The notes under the pieces: generated by a model
Database searches by the model: none
Told to the model about the DNA's origin: nothing
Seen by the model: the letters and a program-made list of their open reading frames with translations, nothing else
Program-made: the position numbers and the translations under genes
In this document: positions 9,709 through 57,692 of the stretch, in pieces
How the letters are laid out: every line of letters begins with the position of its first letter
Position numbering within the stretch: the stretch's first letter is position 1
From: a virus
Taxonomy: Duplodnaviria; Heunggongvirae; Uroviricota; Caudoviricetes
DNA: 64,000 nt
Reading direction: 5' to 3' (one strand)
Virus record (IMG/VR): IMGVR_UViG_2778261161_000002

Positions 9709-9929
9709 ATTAATTTGCTGTTTCTAAATCGGAATGTATGATCTGCATCATCGACTGAAGTCATCCATTGCTGAAATTTTTAGTTGATCTTCCATGTTTT
9801 CAGGCTTATATTCATGCCGTCGTAGCAAATTCTGCGACCAGGTTTGACAGCCTGAATGTTAGTGCGGACAACCGCAGATTTCCGATATTGCGGTATTTTT
9901 GTGTCCGTAAACCGCGTTACGCCCGAATT

Positions 9930-10030
9930 ATGGTGGGGCGTGATGGGGAGGCTTCGGCCTGCTGGTCTCACTAACGCCAGTCTGTCAACCCTGTCACGTC
10001 CTGCCACCTGTTTGACAGCGGGTAGCAGGT
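9930..10030 (+). ncRNA. Candidate c4-like antisense RNA region of immI module 1
   Basis: Direct repeats GTTTGACAGC at 9842 and 10010 flank a complementary CTGTCAAC at 9982, upstream of icd-like ORF; architecture as in P1 c4. Confidence 0.3.
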
Positions 10031-14800: not shown

Positions 14801-17800
14801 AGAACTCACAGCAAGCTGTCTTTAATGCTGTGGAAATGGGGCGTCTTGACCTGGCGTCTGGCAAACACCGTGATGCACAGAAGAAGAACAAGATTAAGGA
14901 TCAGGCCGCGAATACCGGTACAACGAAGAAGCAGAATATCCCGTACTTTGAGGATATGAACTTCGATAGCGTGATTGCCGACGAGGGGCATAACTACCGC
15001 AACTCCTTTAATGCCGGGCGTGAAGCGGGACAACTGGCATATTTGCCTAACCCGGCAGTATCCAAGATGGCCCGCGACATGGCTGTAAAAGCTGCGTACA
15101 TGATGAAACGCAACAACGGACGTGGTGTAGTCATGCTGACGGCAACTCCGCTGGTGAACAGTCCGATTGATGCCTTCAACATGCTGTCTACTGTCATTCC
15201 GCAGGAAGAGTGGATGCGCATGGGCATCATTACGCCTGATGATTTCGTTCGTGTGTTTGGCAAAACAGCCACAGTTCAGGTCCAGAAAATTTCCGGGGAA
15301 GTGGAAGAGAAGCAGGGGCTGGTGGGCTTCCAGAACCTTGATGGCCTGCGTGGTATTTTCCATCGTTGGACCACTCTGAAGACTGCCGCAGATGTCGGAG
15401 CGACGGTTAAAATTCCCGACATCATCGAGAACACCTTGCAGATCCCGATGACAGGGGAGCAGGAGTCTGCTTATGAAGAACTTCGTAAGCGTGCTCAGGA
15501 GTTAAGTCGCAATGATGAGCTGACAGTCGATGAAAACGGGCATATCACTAACGACAAACCGGATGATTTCATCTTCTCCATCATCCGTGACATGGACAAG
15601 GTTGCTATAGACCCGGATCTGTATGCCAGTGCGATTACATTCCAGTTCCCCGTTGAGCTTGCAGACCAGGTAAAAGCTATTGCTGATGCCTTGCCAAAAG
15701 TAGCTGGTGGTAAAGTGGCAGATGATGTTGATGAGGCCGAGGAAGACGGCGCTGGCGGGCTGGTCAGTACGCGTACCAGCAAGGTAGTGAAGACCGCTTT
15801 TAGTGAACATCCGACGCATGTTGAAATACGTGCCAGCATTGAACTGGAAGCTGAAATACTGAAGGCCATTGCGGCTGCCGGTATTGATATGCAGCAGGTA
15901 TCGCACCCCATCCCGCCGAAGTATGCCGCGCTGATCGAAAATCTTCGTGAAGGTCTGAAGAACGGTAAGCAGATCGTCTTTATTGATGAAAAAGCCCAGC
16001 ACCAGAAGCTGCGCCGTATTATCGCCAGTGCACTGCAAATGCCGGAGCAGGAGATTGGCATTATCAATGCGACGACAGTTAGCCAGGCTGGCGGCATCAA
16101 GCTGAAGAAGGTGAATAAGCCGACCGAACCTACTCCAAACAAAAACGGTGAATACAAAGAAGGGGCATGGGAAACCTACTACAGCAAACTTGCCCAATAT
16201 GAGGATTATCTCTCAGCTAAAAATGATGCTGGCCTTGAGGGCATGGAAGGTATTGCCGCCGACTATAACGAAGGTCGCACGCGCATCATAATCTGTAACA
16301 AGAAGGCTGAAGTAGGTATTAACCTGCACATCGGGACAACCGATATCCACCACCTGACACTACCCTGGACACCAGCCAGTATCGACCAACGAAATGGGCG
16401 CGGTGCGCGCATAGGTTCACCGCAAGAGAAGGTCAATGTTCACTACTATTGTGGCAAAGGCACATTCGACGACTTCCGTCTGGATACGCTGAAACGTAAG
16501 AAAGACTGGATCAAGATGGTGATGACCTCCGACATGTCAGAGATCGCCAATGGTGATGTGGATGATGCTGATGAACGCGCCATTATGCTGGCGGCAAACC
16601 CGGAAGAACGCCGCGCAATCATGGCTCGCCAGGCGCAAGAGCGTGAAGAACGTCTGAAACTGAAAGCACAGCGCGAGGCCAACAATGCTCTCGATATCTA
16701 CCTGAAAGCGGCAAACGCCGCCGGAAAAGATATCGGCATGATGGAGACAGAACTGAAAAGCGCGATGGAACAGATAGAGTATTACCAGCGCAATCTTGAC
16801 GACCTGATAAAAGCGGGTACGAACAGGAATGGGCAAAAATACGCGCTTGAGCAGTTGAGTAGCTACAGAAAACGTGCGCGGGTGCTGCGGTTTGCGATCA
16901 CCAGGGCAAAAGACGCGGATACCATAATGAAACGCTCTCGTGGTGATGTGGAGCGCGCTATTAAGTCTGGTGTGCTGGATATCAGTATCGATGTTATTCA
17001 GAACCCACAGGAATATATGCGCACTGACAAGAATATCCTGTTGCATAAAGGTAGTTATTACCGTGCAGTCATTGATGATCGCGAAACAACAGCGATTGTC
17101 CGGGTGGAAAAAATTGACGGTGAAAAAGCACAATACATCTGTCGTATCGCCTGGCTGGATAGAGCAAGTCGTTACGCTCGATCACCGGGGTCAATCGTTA
17201 CATTGCCGTTTGACTCTGTGATTGAAGCGGTAACTTTTGAAGAGGGGGTTGCTGAATCGCGCGCAACGGCTGCGCGTGGTGTTCAGTGCCACCAGCTATC
17301 AACAATACTTACTCGCGATCAGTTCTATGATGCTATTCGCAATGGGGTAATGAATGTTATTGCTGGTAAACCTGGTAATGCATGGGGCGGTGGATCAGCT
17401 ATTAAATACTGGGCATATCGCACAGAAGATGGTCAGATCGCGCTGTCATCGGCCTATGATGGCGTGATAGGCCAAAAAATCGGGCGAGCATCGGATATAG
17501 CACCTGAACGATGGATATATCCTGATGGCAACGACGAGGCGCTGAAGCGTGAAGTGGCAAAAATACAAGCCAGTGATAACCCGCTGAATATCGTGGACGG
17601 AGAGGGATTCCTCCAGGCATTGTATGGGTATGATTACATCCAGGGAATGCAGGCATGGGGCGCACAGGCAACGATGGATGATGTTGCCAAGGAGTTCGAA
17701 AACTGGATGGCTGGGCGTGGTCTGTCAGGTCGTTCGCTTAATAAAGTCACTTCTGAAGATATTCTTAGCTTGTTCCGTAAACCGTCCGGAGAAGGTCTGG

Positions 17801-49251: not shown

Positions 49252-49879
49252 TTTTAAGTTGAATTGTAAATTTCTCCGATGTACATTCACTACCGATTGG
49301 CACACCGGTCAACTTTTTGAGACAAACTGTTTAGTTTTTCGTATTATTGCCCCCGCCATACCTATGGCGGTGCAATATAGGTGGCTGAAAAGCCCCCGTT
49401 GACTCACGGTGTTCCAGCCTTTATTGCGCCGCCACCAGACCGTGGAACAGTCGATGGCGGCTCCGAAAGCAAGGAGTCACTACACTATGAACAACTACAG
49501 TCTTTTCCCATCACTCGTCGTCCACCACTCACGCGATAATCTGCATTCTTTATTCGCGCTGGGGGAGTCAAAATGACTGTTCGCTACCTCAACTTTCAAA
49601 TCAAGAACATTACTGGCGGTTGCTATGACTGGTTTGTCACTCTCGGAAAAGAAGTGATTACCGGGAAGCTGGATGAAGTGAAAGCTAAAGCAATGGCCTA
49701 CGCCTGCAAGCAAGCCCGGAAGAAATCCGCCAAAGCATAAAATACTGACTGTTGCGCCCTGGCATTATCGTGGGGTATATTTCTACGGCACCTTAGAAAA
49801 ACGGGTGCCGGGATTGGAACCCCGGATAATGCAAAAGGCGACACAGACGCCGAAAGCGTCTTTTCTTGTGTCATGCCAT

Positions 49880-50030
49880 CGCACAGCCATACGTAGCGTT
49901 TAGCTCAGAGATCAATGGTAGTGCTGGCTGGGCTGCCGAAAGGCAGGCCGGTTCCCTTTTGCGCCGGTAGTTCCAACCCAGTCAGTGCTACCGCCATTGA
50001 GATTGGAACCTCACGCGGTAGCTCCTTAAA
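49880..50030 (+). ncRNA. Candidate c4-like antisense RNA region of immI module 2
   Basis: GATTGGAACC at 49812 and 50001 with partially complementary GTTCCAACC at 49970; tRNA-like TAGCTCAG segment. Confidence 0.3.
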
Positions 50031-50052
50031 TTAGCAAAAGGAGGCTGCCAAT

Positions 50053-50268
50053 ATGGCTACTATCCCTACCCCAACTCATTCTGAATTTATCTGGCGTTTC
50101 TATTCCTGCCAAAAACACCTGTATATCTGCGTCATGGCTGCAACCGAAGCAGAAGCTCGTTCATACCTTCCTGAAGAACCCTGCATTTTTGCCGCACGCT
50201 TCACTCTTGATGCGATGGAGATCCTCAATTACTGGAATCTGCCAATGAACTGCGTGGAGGTGCACTGA
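50053..50268 (+). CDS. icd: Icd-like protein, 71 aa (second copy)
   Basis: EFIWRFYSCQKHLYICVMAATEAEARS; paralog of 10059. Confidence 0.55.
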   Translation: MATIPTPTHSEFIWRFYSCQKHLYICVMAATEAEARSYLPEEPCIFAARFTLDAMEILNYWNLPMNCVEVH

Positions 50269-51209
50269 TGAATCTGTCCATCTCTCAAAAAGCGACAATG
50301 ACCAGCATTGAGATCGCGGAACTGGTAGGAAGTCGCCAAGATAGTGTGAAGAGAACTATCGAAACACTGGCTAAAAAGAGTGTGATCCAATTTCCACAAT
50401 CTGTGGAAATTGAAAATAAACAATCAGTTGGCCCTCGTCGATTTTCCAAGGCTTACATCTTTGAAGGCGAACAAGGCAAGCGCGATAGTATCATTGTCGT
50501 CGCACAGCTCTCTCCGGAATTCACCGCCCGGCTGGTGGACCGCTGGCGCGAACTGGAGAATGCCAGGGGACCGTTAAAATCAAAAGCCGAAATCCTGGCT
50601 GAAATGGCGCAAATGCATCTTGAGCATGAACGCCGGATCAACGCCGTAAATGCCCAGGTAGCCGAGGTATCAGCACAAGTATCGATGGTCGCTGAAACAC
50701 TCGAGCAAATAAAGAAAGGCAATATGCCGGAAGGCTACATTGGCTACCGCCAGCTGGCGGCGAAATGCGGCCTGACTGAAGCCAAATGTCGCAACCTGGT
50801 TAACGCTTACCGGATACCCACTGATACGCATGAGTTTTTGACTCCCGACGGTTTGCTTGCGCGACGCTCAATTGTGGCCCTGGCCCCCTTCCGGAAAGCC
50901 TTTAAGCAGGTTATGTCGGAGGCAGAACCACGCAACAAACGCTGGTATCATCCAAAGATGGGGATGTTTCAGGCAATCCACCATCCTGTGCCTGAAAGTC
51001 CAAAGGCAAACCTGTCGTTGCATACCGCCAGAGAGAGGATTAAAACAGGGTATGCAATCGTATGCCGTCGAGCATCTTGGCCTGAAGGTGTATGGGTATG
51101 GCCCGAAGGTGGATCACGAAAGCACTGGCGCACTATCCGGGATGGGAAAATCCATGCGATTGATTTAGCTCCAGAGGATGTTGTTGCTACGGACTGGATT
51201 GTTAGTTAA
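50268..51209 (+). CDS. ant: Antirepressor-like protein (second copy), 313 aa
   Basis: Shares conserved blocks with ORF 10283 including a 56-bp identical DNA stretch. Confidence 0.55.
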   Translation: MNLSISQKATMTSIEIAELVGSRQDSVKRTIETLAKKSVIQFPQSVEIENKQSVGPRRFSKAYIFEGEQGKRDSIIVVAQLSPEFTARLVDRWRELENARGPLKSKAEILAEMAQMHLEHERRINAVNAQVAEVSAQVSMVAETLEQIKKGNMPEGYIGYRQLAAKCGLTEAKCRNLVNAYRIPTDTHEFLTPDGLLARRSIVALAPFRKAFKQVMSEAEPRNKRWYHPKMGMFQAIHHPVPESPKANLSLHTARERIKTGYAIVCRRASWPEGVWVWPEGGSRKHWRTIRDGKIHAIDLAPEDVVATDWIVS

Positions 51210-51217
51210 TTACTGTT

Positions 51218-51236
51218 GCCCCGGCCTGTCCGGGGC
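51218..51236 (+). terminator. Hairpin GCCCCGG-cctgt-CCGGGGC
   Basis: Read directly; short T-run. Confidence 0.5.
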
Positions 51237-51268
51237 TTTAACTACTAAATAACCGGATTCTCCGCACG

Positions 51269-51553
51269 ATGAAGAAAATAGATTTCACTTACTCTGCTGC
51301 CACAATCCAGCGACGTTTCAGTCTCATAAGGGAAGTGGAACTATCAAAAAACTGGTATCAAATTCTACTGGATGAAGAGTTTTCACTGATGGTTATAGCA
51401 GAAAAATTGGCTATGCCGAATGACCGGCACAAGGTCATAGCCAGCCTGGATCTGGTGACAAACAGATACTGGGAATCCGAGGAACTACTTGAAGTTGGCT
51501 TGATACGCGAGATGATAGAACAGGCTGTTCCCCTCCACTTACAGCAACCATAA
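51269..51553 (+). CDS. Hypothetical protein, 94 aa
   Basis: ORF track. Confidence 0.4.
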   Translation: MKKIDFTYSAATIQRRFSLIREVELSKNWYQILLDEEFSLMVIAEKLAMPNDRHKVIASLDLVTNRYWESEELLEVGLIREMIEQAVPLHLQQP

Positions 51554-51689
51554 TTGAAAGGTCTTAACGATAGTCTGCCACGAATAGTTACTTTCACTGC
51601 CTAAAGTTATTTAATTGCATTACAAAGTGTAAATTAGTAACATTAGAATCTCACACAGCACTATAACTATATGTTTTTTATGTAAAAGG

Positions 51690-52049
51690 ATGATAATCGT
51701 GGCTACTAAAATTAAACTTGAAAACCCTCAAACTGGCGAATCAATCACCGGTTTTTATGGTTTTTCCTGGACTACATTCTTGTTTGGTGCTTTTCCAGCT
51801 TTGTTCAGGAAAGACTTTATAACTTTTATTGGGGTATTCGTAGTGATGCTGATACTGGCATTCCTCACAGCCGGAATTGGCCCGTGGATTGCCTCATTTA
51901 TCTGGGCGTTCATGTATAATAAATATTTCACCGTAAATAAGATAAAACAAGGCTTCATTTTTGCTGGTTCTCACACAGAAAATGAGTTGGCTGCTAGCAA
52001 GCTAGGATTGTCATTAAATCAAAACAACTGCAAAACTATTACCGAGTAA
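51690..52049 (+). CDS. Small membrane protein, 119 aa
   Basis: Two TM segments WTTFLFGAFPALF and FIGVFVVMLILAFLTAGIGPWIASFIWAF; AT-rich. Confidence 0.5.
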   Translation: MIIVATKIKLENPQTGESITGFYGFSWTTFLFGAFPALFRKDFITFIGVFVVMLILAFLTAGIGPWIASFIWAFMYNKYFTVNKIKQGFIFAGSHTENELAASKLGLSLNQNNCKTITE

Positions 52050-52089
52050 TAGCCAAAAAGCAGGCTTAATAGTAAGCCTGCTATGTCAA

Positions 52090-52974
52090 TCACGAATCTC
52101 TCTGACAATTCAGAAACATAAACGCCCGCTTGTCTGTTAAATCCGTAACATAATACTCTCTCATGCCTGTAGGTTTTATTCTACGAGCATATACAAACTT
52201 ATGAACTGGTTGTTTTTCCCCATAACTTACATCAGTCCTAAATTCATCAACCACGCTACCATCTTTTTCGACTTCCTTCCTCACCAGCTTATTTTCTAAT
52301 GCTGGCTTTAATTCGTCCATGCCACTAAAAGCATCCTGGCCTGTACTATTGCCTCGATTTCCGCGCGGCAAATCCCAGGAGAAATAAGTGCCATAGTCAG
52401 TAATCACACGATCCCAGACTCCGGTATCCCCCATATAGTTAGAGCGCTTTCCATTGTAGGTTACAGCCACTTTACAGGAGTACGTTTCTTCATTCCCTCC
52501 AGCCTTACTCGCTGTGGTTGCAGGGATATTTTGGATAGATGCGCTTACGTCATCTTGCGTTAATTCCTCAACTGGAGCAAATTCATATATGGGTGTGCCG
52601 AGGCTATTTAAATATAACTTATATCTAACCCTAAGCGCACTTCCATCTGAGAATTCATACGTTCCCAGGCATTGGAGCTTATTTTTTTCTCTTATCTCAT
52701 TGATCTGATTATAAGCATCAATTACAGAGATTGCTTCCTGATCGTCCTTCAGCAGTTCATTATAATCATCAATTAACATCTGTCTGGTTTTAGGGGCATT
52801 GCAGTCAATTTTGCTAAAATCATAAGCAAAGGCAAATGTGGGAACAGAGAGAGCAACAACAGTAGCAAGTATTGTTGAGGAACATCTTTTTCCATTTTTT
52901 ATAAAAAACATTTCATTAACTCCATACTTTACCATCTTAGCCGCGAGCGCGGTCCCTAAAACCATTAACTTCAC
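52090..52974 (-). CDS. Secreted protein of unknown function
   Basis: Signal peptide ILATVVALSVPTFAFA after internal Met; AT-rich. Confidence 0.5.
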   Translation of the reverse strand: MKLMVLGTALAAKMVKYGVNEMFFIKNGKRCSSTILATVVALSVPTFAFAYDFSKIDCNAPKTRQMLIDDYNELLKDDQEAISVIDAYNQINEIREKNKLQCLGTYEFSDGSALRVRYKLYLNSLGTPIYEFAPVEELTQDDVSASIQNIPATTASKAGGNEETYSCKVAVTYNGKRSNYMGDTGVWDRVITDYGTYFSWDLPRGNRGNSTGQDAFSGMDELKPALENKLVRKEVEKDGSVVDEFRTDVSYGEKQPVHKFVYARRIKPTGMREYYVTDLTDKRAFMFLNCQRDS

Positions 52975-53206
52975 TGCACCGTTCCTTCATGCAATCAAAA
53001 TGACTTTTATGTTATAAAAATAATCAGCCAAATCAACATGATTTAGGCCAAATTTCTGTCAAAAAATAAAATCCACAAAAAGTGGTTGACACTATTTTGG
53101 AAATCACAAACTGCACATAATCCATCGCGCTAACGGCTCCCGTTGAAGGTTCTTTTGACGATTAACTTTCAGCCGAAGCGCGGTAGGGAGTCATAACGCC
53201 AAAGCA

Positions 53207-53230
53207 GGCCGCCATGTGCGGCCTTTTTTT
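53207..53230 (+). terminator. Rho-independent terminator GGCCGC-catgt-GCGGCC + T7
   Basis: Read directly; no obvious + strand gene upstream. Confidence 0.6.
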
Positions 53231-53257
53231 GTATCCGTCATCCGTGGAGGAAGGACA

Positions 53258-53911
53258 ATGGAAAAGATCGCAATATTCAGCCTGACCACCAGCAAGCCTC
53301 AAATGCTCACTGCAATACTGAAAGACGGTGCTCTCATTATTAACGAAGTAAAACCCCTTCCCGCGTCAGCATTGGAGCAAAAGCAAAAAATTCCTCCAGC
53401 TATAGCAGCCCTGCGGAAAAGCAAATTTAAGGTACTGGTAGACGAAATTACGCCAACGATCTCCGCTGGCACCGGAGCAAGCCAGGTGACTCTCAAGACC
53501 CGTCATGCCGATGGCAGAGCAGCAATCATCGTCGGGATGGAGAGATACAGAGAGTTAAAACTCCAGAAGCTATTATCCCTGCCGCAAAATAACAAAGGTG
53601 CTTTCGAAATCCCCGACTCCATCGTTGACACCGAATACAACGGTAACGGAGAAGAAGTCTACCGGGTGAACTGGCAGGATATCAGGCCGGAACATATTCT
53701 GATGATCCTGTGTTGCTACGCGACCGTATACCACAACGTTGCCAGTGCAGATTACGTAGAGCAGATGACCGGTACAGTCGAGAAAGAGCAAAAAACAGGC
53801 ATACTCGCTTCGTTCCTTTCCATTATTGGGCATGAAAAAGTTAAAGCAGGCACCTCCCAGCCAAAGTCACTGGCCGGGAAAGAAGTTGATGAAGATACCG
53901 TGATACTTTGA
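53258..53911 (+). CDS. Hypothetical protein, 217 aa
   Basis: Start at MEKIAIF preceded by GGAGGAAGG. Confidence 0.5.
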   Translation: MEKIAIFSLTTSKPQMLTAILKDGALIINEVKPLPASALEQKQKIPPAIAALRKSKFKVLVDEITPTISAGTGASQVTLKTRHADGRAAIIVGMERYRELKLQKLLSLPQNNKGAFEIPDSIVDTEYNGNGEEVYRVNWQDIRPEHILMILCCYATVYHNVASADYVEQMTGTVEKEQKTGILASFLSIIGHEKVKAGTSQPKSLAGKEVDEDTVIL

Positions 53912-54224
53912 TCACATTAGTAGCTTTGTTAACTCCCTCAATACCAGGTAGAAGAGTAACAAAAATATTGACGCAAGTATTTGCGTGGTCAATGAGGCGT
54001 TCATAAACAGATCAATAAGCTTTAACAATTCTAGAATAACATCCATGTCATTCACTCCGTTTAATTTTTAATCTAATGCCAGCAAATGAAGCTGGCCCCC
54101 GCATAAAGATTAATGAAAGTCACTTGTCACCAGTGAGGGGATCCCTGAACTGGTGGCCTGTCTGTTTCTCGCATTTCACACCCTGCATACAGTTTCCCCC
54201 AGGTTATGACTGAGAGGCTTTGTT

Positions 54225-54554: not shown

Positions 54555-55740
54555 TTTCCTGAAAAACCAGGACGGGCGCTATATCACTGACGGCCTGTCC
54601 TCTAAGGACTTCACGCGTTTATTCGACCTTATCAGGAAAGAACAAACCCGTAAGCGCCGACAAGCTCACCGGACGCTGACGCCAGGTAGACTGAGGAACA
54701 AATCCGCCGAAGATATTCTCAAGTTAGGGAAGAAAAAAGGCGGCACGTTCTTCACGCGAGACGACCTGAAAGGTTTCGAAAAGCTACGGAGTAAAACGCG
54801 CGAAAAATATGACAGCAAGACGGCTGGCATCACATACGCCCAGCTGGTGGCATCCAGCCAGGCAATCGATATTAAGCGTGCAAATAACGCCGTGGATGAC
54901 GGATCTGGTATCAAAAGAGCTACACCCGTATCTCTTCGCCACAATGTGATTAATATCCGCGTAGAAGCATCGGATATATCCGTCCACCAGCACCATATCG
55001 TCCGGATACGCTTTGAAGAATGGGAGCAGATGGTTGATGACATCGCAGAAGACGATAAATCAGCTCTCAAAATCACTAAATCACTGTGCGCCGGGCGAGT
55101 GTCTTTCGATTGTGACTGTGGTCGTCATCAATACTGGTATCGTTACATCGCCACTGCGGGTAACTTTGCCCTGGCACCGCCAAAAGAATACGCCTATCCA
55201 AAAGTTCGCAACCCGAAGCTGCAAGGCGTCGCCTGTAAACACGTGATCCACTCAATGACGCGGTTACAGTCCGCCAGTTGGCAAATGAGTATTGCTCGTG
55301 CGCTACAAAAGGCTGCAACGCAAATTGCATTTGGTGACGATCGCCGCCGTACAACCAAACACTTCTCAAAAGAAGACGAGAAGGAGTTTAATCGCAATCG
55401 TAGCAGTAAAACGAACGTTGAAGCCGCCAAACGCGAATGGAGGCTCTATCAGAAGCGCCAGGCAGCTTTAAGTACAAAACTGGCAAAGGACAACGGCAAG
55501 ATCGACAAACTACGTGACCAATTGACCAAGGCCAGAAAGTTGTCAGATGCACAGAAAAAACGGGCGGCAGCAAAAGAAGCGGCCTTGCAACGTGAGAAAC
55601 AGAAAAACAAGGAGCTTCAGCAACGCCTTGCCGATCAGTTCGCACTGAAGAAGCAGGCGTTCATTGATGCGCTTGTCATGGCTGGAACACCACCAGCACA
55701 AGCTGAAAAAATGTTCATGGAGTATGTAAAAAAAGCATAA
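54547..55740 (+). CDS. Hypothetical protein with SWIM-type zinc-finger-like motif and K-rich coiled-coil tail
   Basis: FDCDCGRHQYWYRYIATAGNFALAPPKEYAYPKVRNPKLQGVACKHVIH. Confidence 0.45.
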   Translation: MPDFLKNQDGRYITDGLSSKDFTRLFDLIRKEQTRKRRQAHRTLTPGRLRNKSAEDILKLGKKKGGTFFTRDDLKGFEKLRSKTREKYDSKTAGITYAQLVASSQAIDIKRANNAVDDGSGIKRATPVSLRHNVINIRVEASDISVHQHHIVRIRFEEWEQMVDDIAEDDKSALKITKSLCAGRVSFDCDCGRHQYWYRYIATAGNFALAPPKEYAYPKVRNPKLQGVACKHVIHSMTRLQSASWQMSIARALQKAATQIAFGDDRRRTTKHFSKEDEKEFNRNRSSKTNVEAAKREWRLYQKRQAALSTKLAKDNGKIDKLRDQLTKARKLSDAQKKRAAAKEAALQREKQKNKELQQRLADQFALKKQAFIDALVMAGTPPAQAEKMFMEYVKKA

Positions 55741-55773
55741 ACCACACATAGCCTAGCTGCCTAGGCTAGGCTT

Positions 55774-56502
55774 TCATCTTTTTGAAAAATCAATTTCCGT
55801 TTTATCAAATAAATTTGAAATATCAGCAACCAATTTATTAAAATCATGATCGCCATTATAAAGCGAAGTCTTCTTTATTGCCATTACAAAATCATATAAC
55901 TTTTCTGGGGAGTCAATACCAACCCCTCTACTTTTAAAAAGCTCAATGATAACTCCAACATCATCATATAATAACTTTATTGCCGCCATAATCTCTTTTT
56001 GCTGCCTAAGCAATCTCTCAAGTTCATTTTTATTTTCATCCATAATTCTTTTGTTGAATTGTGTATCATTAATACTTTTTATTATTTCAGTCTCTTTTAT
56101 TTGCAACGCCTTTCTTTTATTTTGATCCATGTCGGCATCCAAATACCTTATCTCTGTATATATTTTACTTGTTAGCTTTGATACGCAAAGAGTGACAATC
56201 GGAGCTGCAATTGATGCAATAATTCCAAAAATAAATGGCAAGCAAAAATGATAAAGCCAAGGAGACAAAACGCCTTCATAAACTAGAGGAATCTTACCTC
56301 CAACAAATGTTACAGATAAAGTATATAGGATATCATCCTTTGACTTCATCAATATTAGTATATCTTTCCAATTAATAATTAGAAAAGAAATTAATATATA
56401 TGCAAACACTTTATTAAAAAGCTTGTCTTTTATGGCATCTCCAAAAGATACTTTTATTAGATCATTTTCAGTCAATTTTTCTGTTGATGAATCTGTATTC
56501 AT
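55774..56502 (-). CDS. AT-rich membrane protein (candidate abortive-infection/exclusion effector), 242 aa
   Basis: TM segments then coiled-coil; low GC relative to flanks. Confidence 0.5.
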   Translation of the reverse strand: MNTDSSTEKLTENDLIKVSFGDAIKDKLFNKVFAYILISFLIINWKDILILMKSKDDILYTLSVTFVGGKIPLVYEGVLSPWLYHFCLPFIFGIIASIAAPIVTLCVSKLTSKIYTEIRYLDADMDQNKRKALQIKETEIIKSINDTQFNKRIMDENKNELERLLRQQKEIMAAIKLLYDDVGVIIELFKSRGVGIDSPEKLYDFVMAIKKTSLYNGDHDFNKLVADISNLFDKTEIDFSKR

Positions 56503-56564
56503 ATAAACTACCGTGATTTCTAATATCTATTTTATGAAAATAGCGGTCATCCAGACCGCCAAAC

Positions 56565-56924
56565 TCAAATACCAACCAAGCTTTCAAGAGGAATGCCAAA
56601 CTGGGAATGTAAACGGCGAATCATAGGTAACGTCAAATTTCGTGTCCCATTTAGCACTTCGTAAACACGATTTGACTTACCAATCGCCGGTTCCAGATCC
56701 TTCACGGTCAGCCCTTGCTGTTCCATACGGAATTTAATGGCCTCAATAGGTGATGGTGGCTCAATTGGGTAATGTTTTTTCTCGTACTCCTCAATGAGAA
56801 GACTCATAACCTCAAAGAAATCACCTTCCGGAGTATTCATTTCCGGTTCGTTATCGAACATCGGTTCGACCGCACGCAGTGCGGCCTCATAATCTTGTTC
56901 TGTACGGATAGGTTTAATGTTCAT
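56565..56924 (-). CDS. HigA-like HTH antitoxin/regulator (E. coli YgjM type)
   Basis: C-terminal GLTVKDLEPAIGKSNRVYEVLNGTRNLTLPMIRRLHSQFGIP resembles HigA HTH. Confidence 0.6.
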   Translation of the reverse strand: MNIKPIRTEQDYEAALRAVEPMFDNEPEMNTPEGDFFEVMSLLIEEYEKKHYPIEPPSPIEAIKFRMEQQGLTVKDLEPAIGKSNRVYEVLNGTRNLTLPMIRRLHSQFGIPLESLVGI

Positions 56925-56936
56925 TAATTACAAAGG

Positions 56937-56962
56937 AAAGCCCACTTGCTAAGTGGGCTTTT
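56937..56962. terminator. Hairpin AAGCCCAC-ttgctaa-GTGGGCTT + T-run
   Basis: Between higA and HigA-like gene. Confidence 0.55.
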
Positions 56963-56980
56963 TGTATGTGTTTTACTATA

Positions 56981-57319
56981 TCAGGCTGCTTTTTTATTCA
57001 GGTTCCGCTGAGAAATAAATTTTTCAGCAGTATTGATACGACTTAACTCTTCCTGAACGCGCATATCATTTTCGACTTCCCACAGATCTACTGCGGTCTG
57101 AAGATTAATCCAAAAATCTACAGAAGTATCGAATGCTTTTGCCAGGCGATATGCCATATCCATCGTTAGCTTACGATTATTATTAACAAGAGCACTTACG
57201 GTGTTACGATGAACATGAAGTATTTCTGCTAACTCGTTGATCTTCAGCTCTAACGGCTCCAGGTATTCGTACAGCAGGATATCACCTACGGTCGTCGGTT
57301 TTCTGGTTGCCTGTTTCAT
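56981..57319 (-). CDS. higA: HigA antitoxin (XRE-type HTH)
   Basis: TVGDILLYEYLEPLELKINELAEILHVHRNTVSALVNNNRKLTMDMAYRLAKAFDTSVDFWINLQ. Confidence 0.8.
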   Translation of the reverse strand: MKQATRKPTTVGDILLYEYLEPLELKINELAEILHVHRNTVSALVNNNRKLTMDMAYRLAKAFDTSVDFWINLQTAVDLWEVENDMRVQEELSRINTAEKFISQRNLNKKAA

Positions 57320-57389
57320 TTTTTGCCCTTACTAGCGTGCGTATTAAGTGGACTCTGGTCAGAACCCGGTCCGTAACCGGGTATCTGTT

Positions 57390-57692
57390 TTAGTATTTGT
57401 GAGGGTCGAGATACAAGTCCTCGGCCTTTCCGTTAACCCACTTAAAAATTAACCTATATTGCTTATTCACCCTTACTGATGAATAGCCATTTAGCTTCCC
57501 TGACAGTTCCTCATACCGATTACCTGGTGGTGATCTTAAATCCTTACAGGTAGTTGCGGCATTGATAATGTCCAACTTCCGTGACAATGTCATATGAATA
57601 TCAGGAGGTATCTTTCTATGTGGTGTTGAAAATTCAAAAAAATCATCAAGCCACGCATCCCTGAAATCCTTTATGTTAATTTTTTTGGTCAT
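57390..57692 (-). CDS. higB: HigB toxin (RelE/ParE superfamily)
   Basis: YRLIFKWVNGKAEDLYLDPHKY C-terminus; upstream of higA. Confidence 0.75.
   Translation of the reverse strand: MTKKINIKDFRDAWLDDFFEFSTPHRKIPPDIHMTLSRKLDIINAATTCKDLRSPPGNRYEELSGKLNGYSSVRVNKQYRLIFKWVNGKAEDLYLDPHKY

Follow-up and report, generated by a model that had tools for sequence, protein, structure and literature searches.

The window analysed here is a 64,000-nt stretch of the viral record IMGVR_UViG_2778261161_000002, in which an AT-rich slot with exchangeable genes directly precedes a conserved, putative leader RNA of mat, the gene for the maturation control protein. The 2.1 kb around this junction share 96% identity with Escherichia phage D6, a P1-related plasmid prophage, and 100% identity with several Escherichia coli plasmids that measure about 90 kb, among them pE2863-2. 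By its sequence, the window is a D6-like (P1-related) phage-plasmid. The local gene order was taken from the D6 annotation together with open reading frame (ORF) and family scans. The pmgF-like gene is followed by a small membrane-protein gene on the plus strand, a simB-like gene on the minus strand, an intergenic region of 346 nt, mat and genes 26 and 25 (Table 1). A first-pass annotation had described positions 51560-53230 as an AT-rich moron that encodes a membrane protein and a secreted protein and ends in a plus-strand terminator without a gene of its own, suggestive of a small RNA or leader.

Table 1. Features of the mat locus and the adjacent cargo slot; positions refer to the window.
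Feature	Position	Strand	Details
Conserved promoter-like region	53086..53121	+	TTGACA 53086-91; box ATCACAAAC 53103-11; -10-like CATAAT 53116-21
Conserved structured leader RNA / small RNA candidate	53122..53231	+	about 105-110 nt; covariance-model match, covariation, conservation
Intrinsic terminator of leader	53206..53230	+	stem 53206-53224 with 7 bp, 6 of them G-C, loop of 5; seven T 53224-53230
mat (maturation control protein, 217 aa)	53258..53911	+	Shine-Dalgarno sequence GGAGG 53246-50; PHROG 1837; 99% identity to D6 Mat
AT-rich variable cargo slot	51554..53085		38.3% GC; between pmgF-like gene and mat promoter region
Small membrane protein	51699..52049	+	116 aa from GTG 51699; 119 aa from ATG 51690; 2-3 transmembrane segments
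Terminator of simB-like gene	52052..52082	-	hairpin 52082-52059, 10-bp stem, then TTTTTGG
Exported two-domain protein (simB-like gene)	52090..52911	-	273 aa from ATG; signal peptide about 1-29, SimB-like N-domain about 30-116, C-domain about 140-273
Intergenic, part of variable segment	52912..53085		35.6% GC; poorly conserved left of 53086 (alignment)
isrK-like RNA and C4 antisense RNA	49788-49998		
icd			between C4 RNA and antirepressor gene
Rha/Ant-type antirepressor	50268-51209		
pmgF-like gene	51269-51553		

The strong plus-strand terminator without an upstream plus-strand gene is indeed present. Its GC-rich hairpin stands directly before the U-run, as expected of an intrinsic terminator, has a predicted energy of -13.1 kcal/mol and is the strongest plus-strand site in a 5-kb scan, in which terminator-like sites as a whole are only mildly enriched (13 found vs 5.0 +/- 2.1 expected). 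An ORF scan found no plus-strand frame of at least 30 aa that ends upstream of it. The terminator is present in all lineages, and the Enterobacter lineage carries a compensatory change from G-C to A-U in the stem. The first-pass annotation had let this terminator close the moron, which does not hold. Homology to plasmids and metagenome relatives with other cargo resumes exactly at 53086, whatever stands to the left, and hence the terminator is conserved backbone rather than cargo. To the left of the breakpoint at 53086 lies the cargo; to its right, the promoter-like region, the RNA, the terminator and mat together form a backbone element. This element is present with every cargo type and also in lineages without such cargo, phage P1 included.

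The layout of the promoter-like region is the same in all lineages, with the TTGAC box often placed after A-tracts and sometimes after an upstream terminator. Its position matches that of the annotated Pmat/LPmat in P1 (NC_005856, 2666-2696). There, TTGACA, an internal box, a -10 element and the leader occur in the same order, but the -22 box of P1 (AAGTGACTT) is replaced here by ATCACAAAC. A P1-type late-promoter box upstream of the leader was considered and is absent, and no P1-type C1 operators were found in the window. Boxes of the AAGTNACTT type occur elsewhere in the window, e.g., at 17745 and 22002. Furthermore, a P1-type late-promoter signature (AAGTGACTT-tcat-TAATCT) lies at 54108-54126 on the minus strand and points leftward; it would transcribe a small minus-strand ORF (54055-53912) and then run antisense into mat.

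The fold conserved among the leaders is composed of a long-range helix P1 (53135-41/53186-92) that encloses a hairpin P2 (53145-49/53166-70) with a 16-nt loop (53150-65). An A-rich linker (53193-205) connects helix P1 with the terminator. Two unpaired blocks are invariant in 20 of 20 sequences, namely UUUUG (53153-57) in the P2 loop and GCGCGG (53178-83) shortly ahead of the 3' strand of helix P1. Mean pairwise column identity amounts to 0.94-0.98 across 53128-53227, compared with about 0.86 in the mat coding sequence. A covariance model was derived from D6-type sequences with a hand-derived structure (R1) and rebuilt from 17 lineage representatives (R2). In the window, R2 detects a single copy at 53122-53230 with 118.8 bits.

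Covariation was evaluated on 20 distinct sequences in alignments fitted to the model. Paired cells make up 94.9% compared with 86.1% in shuffled alignments, and 10 of the 19 base pairs have changed on both sides. The covariation score is 0.326, as opposed to 0.152 in the shuffles (0/500 reach the observed value) and at most 0.122 in slid controls, where the partners are offset by 1-3 columns. In helix P1, six of seven pairs covary; the strands read GGCUCCC/GGGAGUC here and GUGUUCCC/GGGAACAU, GCGAACC/GGUUCGU or AGAUUCU/AGAAUCU elsewhere. Covariance-model alignments were used because MAFFT/RNAalifold misaligned the distant lineages and, on the raw sequences, recovered the terminator only. Although the alignments are fitted to the model, the slid controls and hand tables argue that the covariation signal is real. 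On this comparative evidence, 53122-53231 represents a previously unannotated conserved candidate RNA family at the mat 5' end in the P1/D6 group. Conservation above that of mat and covarying helices thus support the earlier suggestion that the terminator marks a small RNA or leader, and we infer that the leader RNA is made and that termination occurs in vivo. A search with Rfam 15 gives nothing on the element at the gathering threshold and only chance-level matches across 51000-54200 (E >=1.3), none of them on the element. The RefSeq annotation contains nothing at the leader.

A conserved sequence at this position need not act as RNA. The hairpin might simply insulate mat against plus-strand read-through, with the conservation reflecting DNA sites of a mat promoter or operator. 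The terminator hairpin of the simB-like gene lies directly 3' of the membrane-protein gene and, read on the plus strand, has no T-run after it, so that read-through from the c4-icd-ant-pmgF operon is plausible. Moreover, a separate terminator directly upstream of the TTGAC box in some lineages shows that insulation matters here. However, the compensatory changes that keep helices P1 and P2 point to selection on a folded single strand and not on duplex DNA, and conservation peaks on the downstream side of the -10 element rather than within the promoter. A pure insulator therefore appears very improbable.

The leader is strictly linked to mat throughout its phylogenetic range. In IMG/VR, the core 23-mer occurs in 32 contigs, and a close Mat homologue is encoded by exactly this set of 32. 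Gapped motif searches and alignment-based Mat searches recover the leader in at least 10 lineages, in front of mat genes whose products are 35-100% identical, and R2 finds it upstream of every non-P1-type, non-Vibrio Mat homologue searched. The common order is a TTGAC box, 24-27 nt with an (A/T)CACAAAC-like box, a -10-like hexamer, an RNA of about 100 nt, a GGCCGC/GCGGCC hairpin with U-run, 20-30 nt with a Shine-Dalgarno sequence and a Mat start of the form M-x-Q/E-K-I. A Vibrio relative (mat L074) seems to be devoid of the element, and R2 is blank on the Vibrio-type upstream region. In Klebsiella, a remnant with the order ref'-leader-mat-26-25-higBA and a truncated ref is found beside an ars operon (L072, L073, L139-L142). 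Large conjugative plasmids of Klebsiella carry this remnant widely (a Mat match in 129 Klebsiella records), and large E. coli plasmids have it as well. R2 is usable to annotate the element, with the exception of the P1-type leader.

In phage P1 itself (L005, NC_005856), Omat, Pmat and LPmat are annotated at 2628-2696 and the Mat start at 2716. In contrast to the arrangement described here, the P1 annotation includes neither a leader nor a terminator, and Mat starts inside the leader. The 114 nt from 2716 to 2829 are annotated as 38 N-terminal residues that are found in no other Mat lineage; nearly all Mat homologues have 216-220 aa. Within these 114 nt, a 9-bp long-range helix (GCCCGGUAC/GUACCGGGC) can be recognised, together with a hairpin whose 15-nt loop includes CUUUUCAA, another small hairpin and a canonical terminator (AGCCGCC GCU GGUGGCU UUUUCUUUUUU), after which comes GGGG-N5-ATG GAT AAG AAA (MDKKI). 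Across 14 distinct P1-like sequences, the P1 leader does not vary (100% conservation). In P1-like sequences (L167-L184), indels of 1 and 2 nt occur in the T-run and the G-run that separate the annotated ATG from MDKKI; they would disrupt the frame as annotated. Hence, the P1 Mat start is probably annotated 38 codons too early, with MDKKI as the predicted start instead. R2 does not detect the P1 version of the leader, and for this reason only position and architecture speak for the homology between P1 and D6-type leaders.

The spacing between terminator and gene constrains how mat can be expressed. From the T-run to the mat ATG there are 27 nt with the Shine-Dalgarno sequence inside, and about 20-30 nt in all lineages. 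Because these 27 nt are occupied by the Shine-Dalgarno sequence and leave no room for a promoter, every mat transcript would have to start upstream and pass the terminator. Thus, the element can be described as a leader with a built-in terminator and read as an attenuator; in all lineages, the terminator stands between promoter and ORF with no other promoter present. In this model, transcription from the promoter-like region would give a structured RNA, about 105 nt long, with its 3' end at the terminator. Most transcripts would stop there and yield the short RNA, and a regulated or fixed fraction would proceed into mat and, in D6-type genomes, into genes 26 and 25. Helix P1, hairpin P2 with its UUUUG loop and the GCGCGG box might be recognised by a factor that thereby sets the level of read-through. 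Firing could occur after induction, by analogy with the C1-controlled and Lpa-dependent late promoters of P1 at the same position. Regulated read-through into mat is what we infer from this arrangement. The combination of a cargo island carrying an exclusion-type gene pair with a separate, transcription-attenuating mat leader is the interpretation we favour, with confidence a little better than even.

Several observations weigh against an attenuating leader. The promoter spacer is 24 nt here and 24-26 nt in most lineages, where 17 nt would be canonical, and a sigma-70 scan made no call. A mutually exclusive antiterminator was not found; on hand inspection, the best pairing is GCGGU/GCCGC with 5 bp, and a further helix discussed below (P0) spares the terminator. 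As no competing antiterminator pairing was found, the logic of a classic attenuator or riboswitch is not visible. The fold optimum of the window sequence (-41.1 kcal/mol) uses P0, compared with -24.7 kcal/mol for the conserved P1/P2 fold. In addition, no description of an RNA at this position was found in the literature, and two RNA-seq studies of P1 mention neither mat nor such an RNA. Finally, the A-rich linker and the terminator resemble the 3' module of Hfq-type small RNAs (sRNAs).

The main rival to the attenuator is accordingly a free-standing, trans-acting sRNA that depends on Hfq or ProQ and uses the P2 loop (UUCUUUUGAC) or the GCGCGG box to pair with phage or host mRNAs, mat being expressed only by incidental leakage. 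At about 105 nt, the element resembles an sRNA in its anatomy, with a promoter-like region of its own, a single-stranded linker rich in A, and a GC hairpin that ends in a U-tail; unpaired blocks that are invariant in all lineages are typical of seed regions. An sRNA would also account for the missing competing antiterminator. It is difficult to reconcile, however, with the strict linkage to the mat start at fixed spacing in every lineage, including P1 with its other downstream genes and the Klebsiella remnant. An exact search with the 23-mer returns the element alone in the window, and complementarity in the 64 kb is at chance level in a k-mer complement search (longest match 11 nt, about 3 such expected). 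By hand, 8 bp can be paired between the P2 loop and the ribosome-binding site (RBS) of icd at about 50037-50044 (UUCUUUUG with CAAAAGGA), which would suit an sRNA. A target scan with RNAduplex yielded meaningless long-loop duplexes and was discarded, as was a 9-nt match beside the RBS of gene 26 (54203-11), which is within chance expectation. Taken together, we regard a trans-acting sRNA as possible but on the unlikely side.

Likewise, the C4 antisense RNA (RF01695) of the P1/P7 immI region is a phage-plasmid regulatory RNA of similar size, and the loop of the C4 copy at 49911-49998 (UUCCCUUUUGCG) resembles the P2 loop of the leader, a likeness that would favour an RNA acting in trans. In contrast to C4, which is processed from an operon transcript and is not terminator-ended, the mat leader misses the C4 model. 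Co-variation of C4 loop and mat-leader loop across phages is ruled out by P1, whose C4 loops are unlike its own leader loop, and the similarity is thus not general. The window contains two C4-type immunity RNA loci. The locus at 9806-10011 comprises a c4-a1b1 target and a C4 RNA, the latter with 1 nt difference from the P1 c4 region. The locus at 49788-49998 comprises an isrK-like RNA and a second C4 with other loops (UUCCCUUUUGCG), whose likely target is GCAAAAGGAGG at the icd RBS (about 50034-50046).

Helix P0 pairs the 5' end of the leader (53124-31) with the GCGCGG box (53177-84) and thereby crosses helix P1. It is strong in D6 and Enterobacter types (z -3.3 to -3.8) and shows one U-A to A-U exchange. 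As a family-wide pseudoknot or switch it was rejected: 68% of its cells are paired, a result that 94 of 500 shuffles match. P0 versus P1 in D6-type leaders may represent a lineage-specific bistability. Two further candidates were set aside. A mini-hairpin of the form C(U/A)GC...GCGG appears in lineages A-G but is invariant, which leaves no covariation to support it. A coding leader was dismissed as well: the sole ORF inside it (UUG, 17 codons) loses its frame through a 1-nt indel in the Klebsiella lineage, and by hand translation the changes in it are mostly non-synonymous.

The two candidate conformers of the D6 lineage would be in line with a sensor in cis, i.e., a riboswitch-like aptamer, or with a processive antiterminator of the put/EAR type that modifies RNA polymerase. 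In either case, passage of the downstream terminator would require a specific signal or a polymerase that had itself transcribed the RNA. The multi-helix fold, with invariant unpaired nucleotides 15-20 nt before a terminator that precedes a needed gene, speaks for this reading, and the lack of an alternative-pairing antiterminator suits RNAs that bind the polymerase. Still, the fold has only about 19 conserved pairs, P0 lacks the family-wide support described above, and neither Rfam riboswitches nor other Rfam families match the element even at E up to 5. The sequence suggests no ligand or partner. We therefore judge a sensor or polymerase-modifying RNA to be quite improbable.

The attenuating leader favoured here has partial counterparts among known systems. 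Similar to lambda pR'-6S RNA-tR', a promoter with a short terminated RNA stands immediately ahead of late or morphogenesis genes, to which only read-through gives access. Unlike in lambda, no Q-type antiterminator or qut site was identified at the mat leader, and P1-type late genes have the activator Lpa according to the P1 annotation. Moreover, a constraint on RNA folding, as the covariation indicates for the mat leader, does not apply to the lambda 6S leader. With the HK022 put RNA and other antiterminator RNAs that act in cis, riboswitches and attenuator leaders, the mat leader shares a conserved folded RNA between promoter and terminator. It differs from them in having neither an Rfam match nor a competing antiterminator helix and in its design, a long-range helix that encloses a hairpin together with a conserved single-stranded box.

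A bolder proposal, which we consider rather unlikely, is that the mat leader represents a new class of cis-regulatory RNA, ligand- or protein-sensing or polymerase-modifying, that times mat, and in D6-type phages the baseplate and tail genes, across the whole P1 group. Such a class would have escaped notice in P1 for decades because the Mat ORF, as annotated, reaches over the leader. A conserved, structured RNA upstream of mat with a terminator at its end would give late development an extra regulatory layer that is absent from annotation and Rfam, and the P1 mat start would be corrected. P1 and its relatives are both classic model phages and abundant phage-plasmids in clinical Enterobacteriaceae.

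To the left of the breakpoint, base composition and content of the locus change. The GC content of 51560-53230 is 39.3% compared with 47.5% in the window, i.e., about 2.9 standard deviations below windows of the same length (mean 47.5%, SD 2.8%), of which 2% are as low. The first-pass annotation had stated that the region is poorer in GC than its flanks and had proposed a significance check as a possible refutation; when the check was run, the difference proved real. The extent requires correction, as the low-GC region reaches to 53085 (38.3% for 51554-53085), while the final 145 nt up to 53230, which include the terminator, have 49% GC. Within this shorter range, the classification as moron-type cargo is supported, with low GC (38.3% vs 47.5%), an own terminator (52082-52052) and presence/absence polymorphism among otherwise collinear D6-like plasmids. 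A sigma-70 scan called no consensus promoter in the slot; 52912-53085 presumably holds the promoter of the simB-like gene.

The whole 2.1 kb is carried by only 38 of 100 complete E. coli genomes matching the query. Slot content was tabulated over about 100 loci. About half of the D6-type elements have the pair of membrane-protein and simB-like genes; some loci show it cut down or displaced, and others have about 1.1 kb of different DNA instead. Those replacements that were translated also encode minus-strand signal-peptide proteins, which belong to unrelated families. In a comparison of Salmonella D6-like prophages, the vicinity of the simB homologue was a divergent region, and simA and simC were missing (PMC6799933). 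Judged from these comparisons, 51554-53085 is ordinary exchangeable cargo, a convergent gene pair in a recombination-prone slot. The slot would thus be a defined hotspot at which D6-like plasmids swap genes for exported proteins, which bears on phage exclusion and plasmid typing.

At the right end of the slot, a short inverted repeat with an A-rich loop (53068-53085) is located directly left of the TTGACA box and recurs at the same position in L003 and L004. Its versions change compensatorily between cargo types (CCACAAAAAGTGG here, CGAGTTAAAAAAACTCG in L003 and GAATAAAAAAATTC in L004), and on the minus strand it amounts to a weak hairpin with a T-run behind it. For the palindrome-like TGATTTAGGCCAAATT (53039-54), no second copy was found elsewhere.

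Both proteins postulated by the first-pass annotation, one with two transmembrane segments and one secreted, on opposite strands, are borne out. Hydropathy assigns two or three transmembrane segments to the former, encoded on the plus strand, with a hydrophobic block of 38 residues (residues 34-72) and a weaker one before it. The protein belongs to PHROG 4915 (function unknown; E=3e-47), is 100% identical to D6 orf80 and shares about 55% identity with 'HrgC' of 121Q-type jumbo phages; a Pfam search returned no match. The exported protein (PHROG 13054) has an N-terminus with positive charge, a hydrophobic core and an AFA|YD end, consistent with a signal peptide, and hydropathy reveals no further transmembrane segment. 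Its residues 8-116 share 46% identity with P1 SimB (E=1e-27), confined to the N-domain. The C-domain (about 140-273) is strongly conserved with two Cys residues and stands behind a different N-domain in the homologues P0009-P0011. An AlphaFold2 (AF2) model of the exported protein is weak (predicted local distance difference test, pLDDT, 58), and no PDB fold matched at E <=0.001. A Pfam match to Lactamase_B_2 fell below threshold and was discarded.

The SimB relationship and the pairing of a membrane protein with a periplasmic one suggest an envelope function of the cargo pair in the carrier cell, with superinfection exclusion as the most plausible role. In the P1 sim locus (simA-simB-simC), which lies next to immI, the SimB N-domain and the signal peptide have counterparts here, and the exported-protein gene is likewise near an immI-type operon (C4 RNA, icd, ant). 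Unlike in P1, there is no SimA or SimC homologue here, and the SimB domain is fused to an unrelated C-domain of 140 aa (PMC6799933 for the missing genes). The same study takes the simB homologue as an exclusion gene (PMC6799933). Within phage P1, tblastn matches of the exported protein cover SimB only. In the comparison with the P1 Sim system, a SimB homologue with signal peptide was found, and a SimC-type exported exclusion protein was not. Two points count against an exclusion role: in BLASTP, the exported protein shows no similarity to P1 SimC (E=0.76), and the P1 annotation lists SimB as 'putative accessory' only. It is SimC that Maillou and Dreiseikelmann reportedly showed in 1990 to give superimmunity. 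The Imm and Sp exclusion pair of phage T4 likewise combines a small multi-transmembrane inner-membrane protein with a periplasm-facing protein. The comparison is an analogy only; no relationship of the cargo pair to Imm and Sp was found in sequence or fold.

The Mat protein has no Pfam domain, and its AF2 model (pLDDT 81) contains an RNase H-like core. The closest folds are nuclease domains of large terminases (P74-26, G20c, SPP1 and T4 gp17), with weak but consistent matches (E about 1e-3, TM-score about 0.45-0.5), and the usual acidic residue of strand 1 is not conserved. The predicted fold fits a role in DNA maturation and gives no specific support for an RNA-binding autoregulator. A second variable slot is located between mat and gene 26 (53912-54224). 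It measures 313 nt in the window and is missing altogether (0 nt) from the Klebsiella-type and several further lineages; elsewhere it reaches as much as about 1.7 kb, with RelE/HigA genes in L003. Further downstream, an island at about 55600-57600 is even more AT-rich (GC 0.30-0.40); its counterpart in D6 holds orf73 and toxin-antitoxin genes of the HigA/HigA/RelE type.

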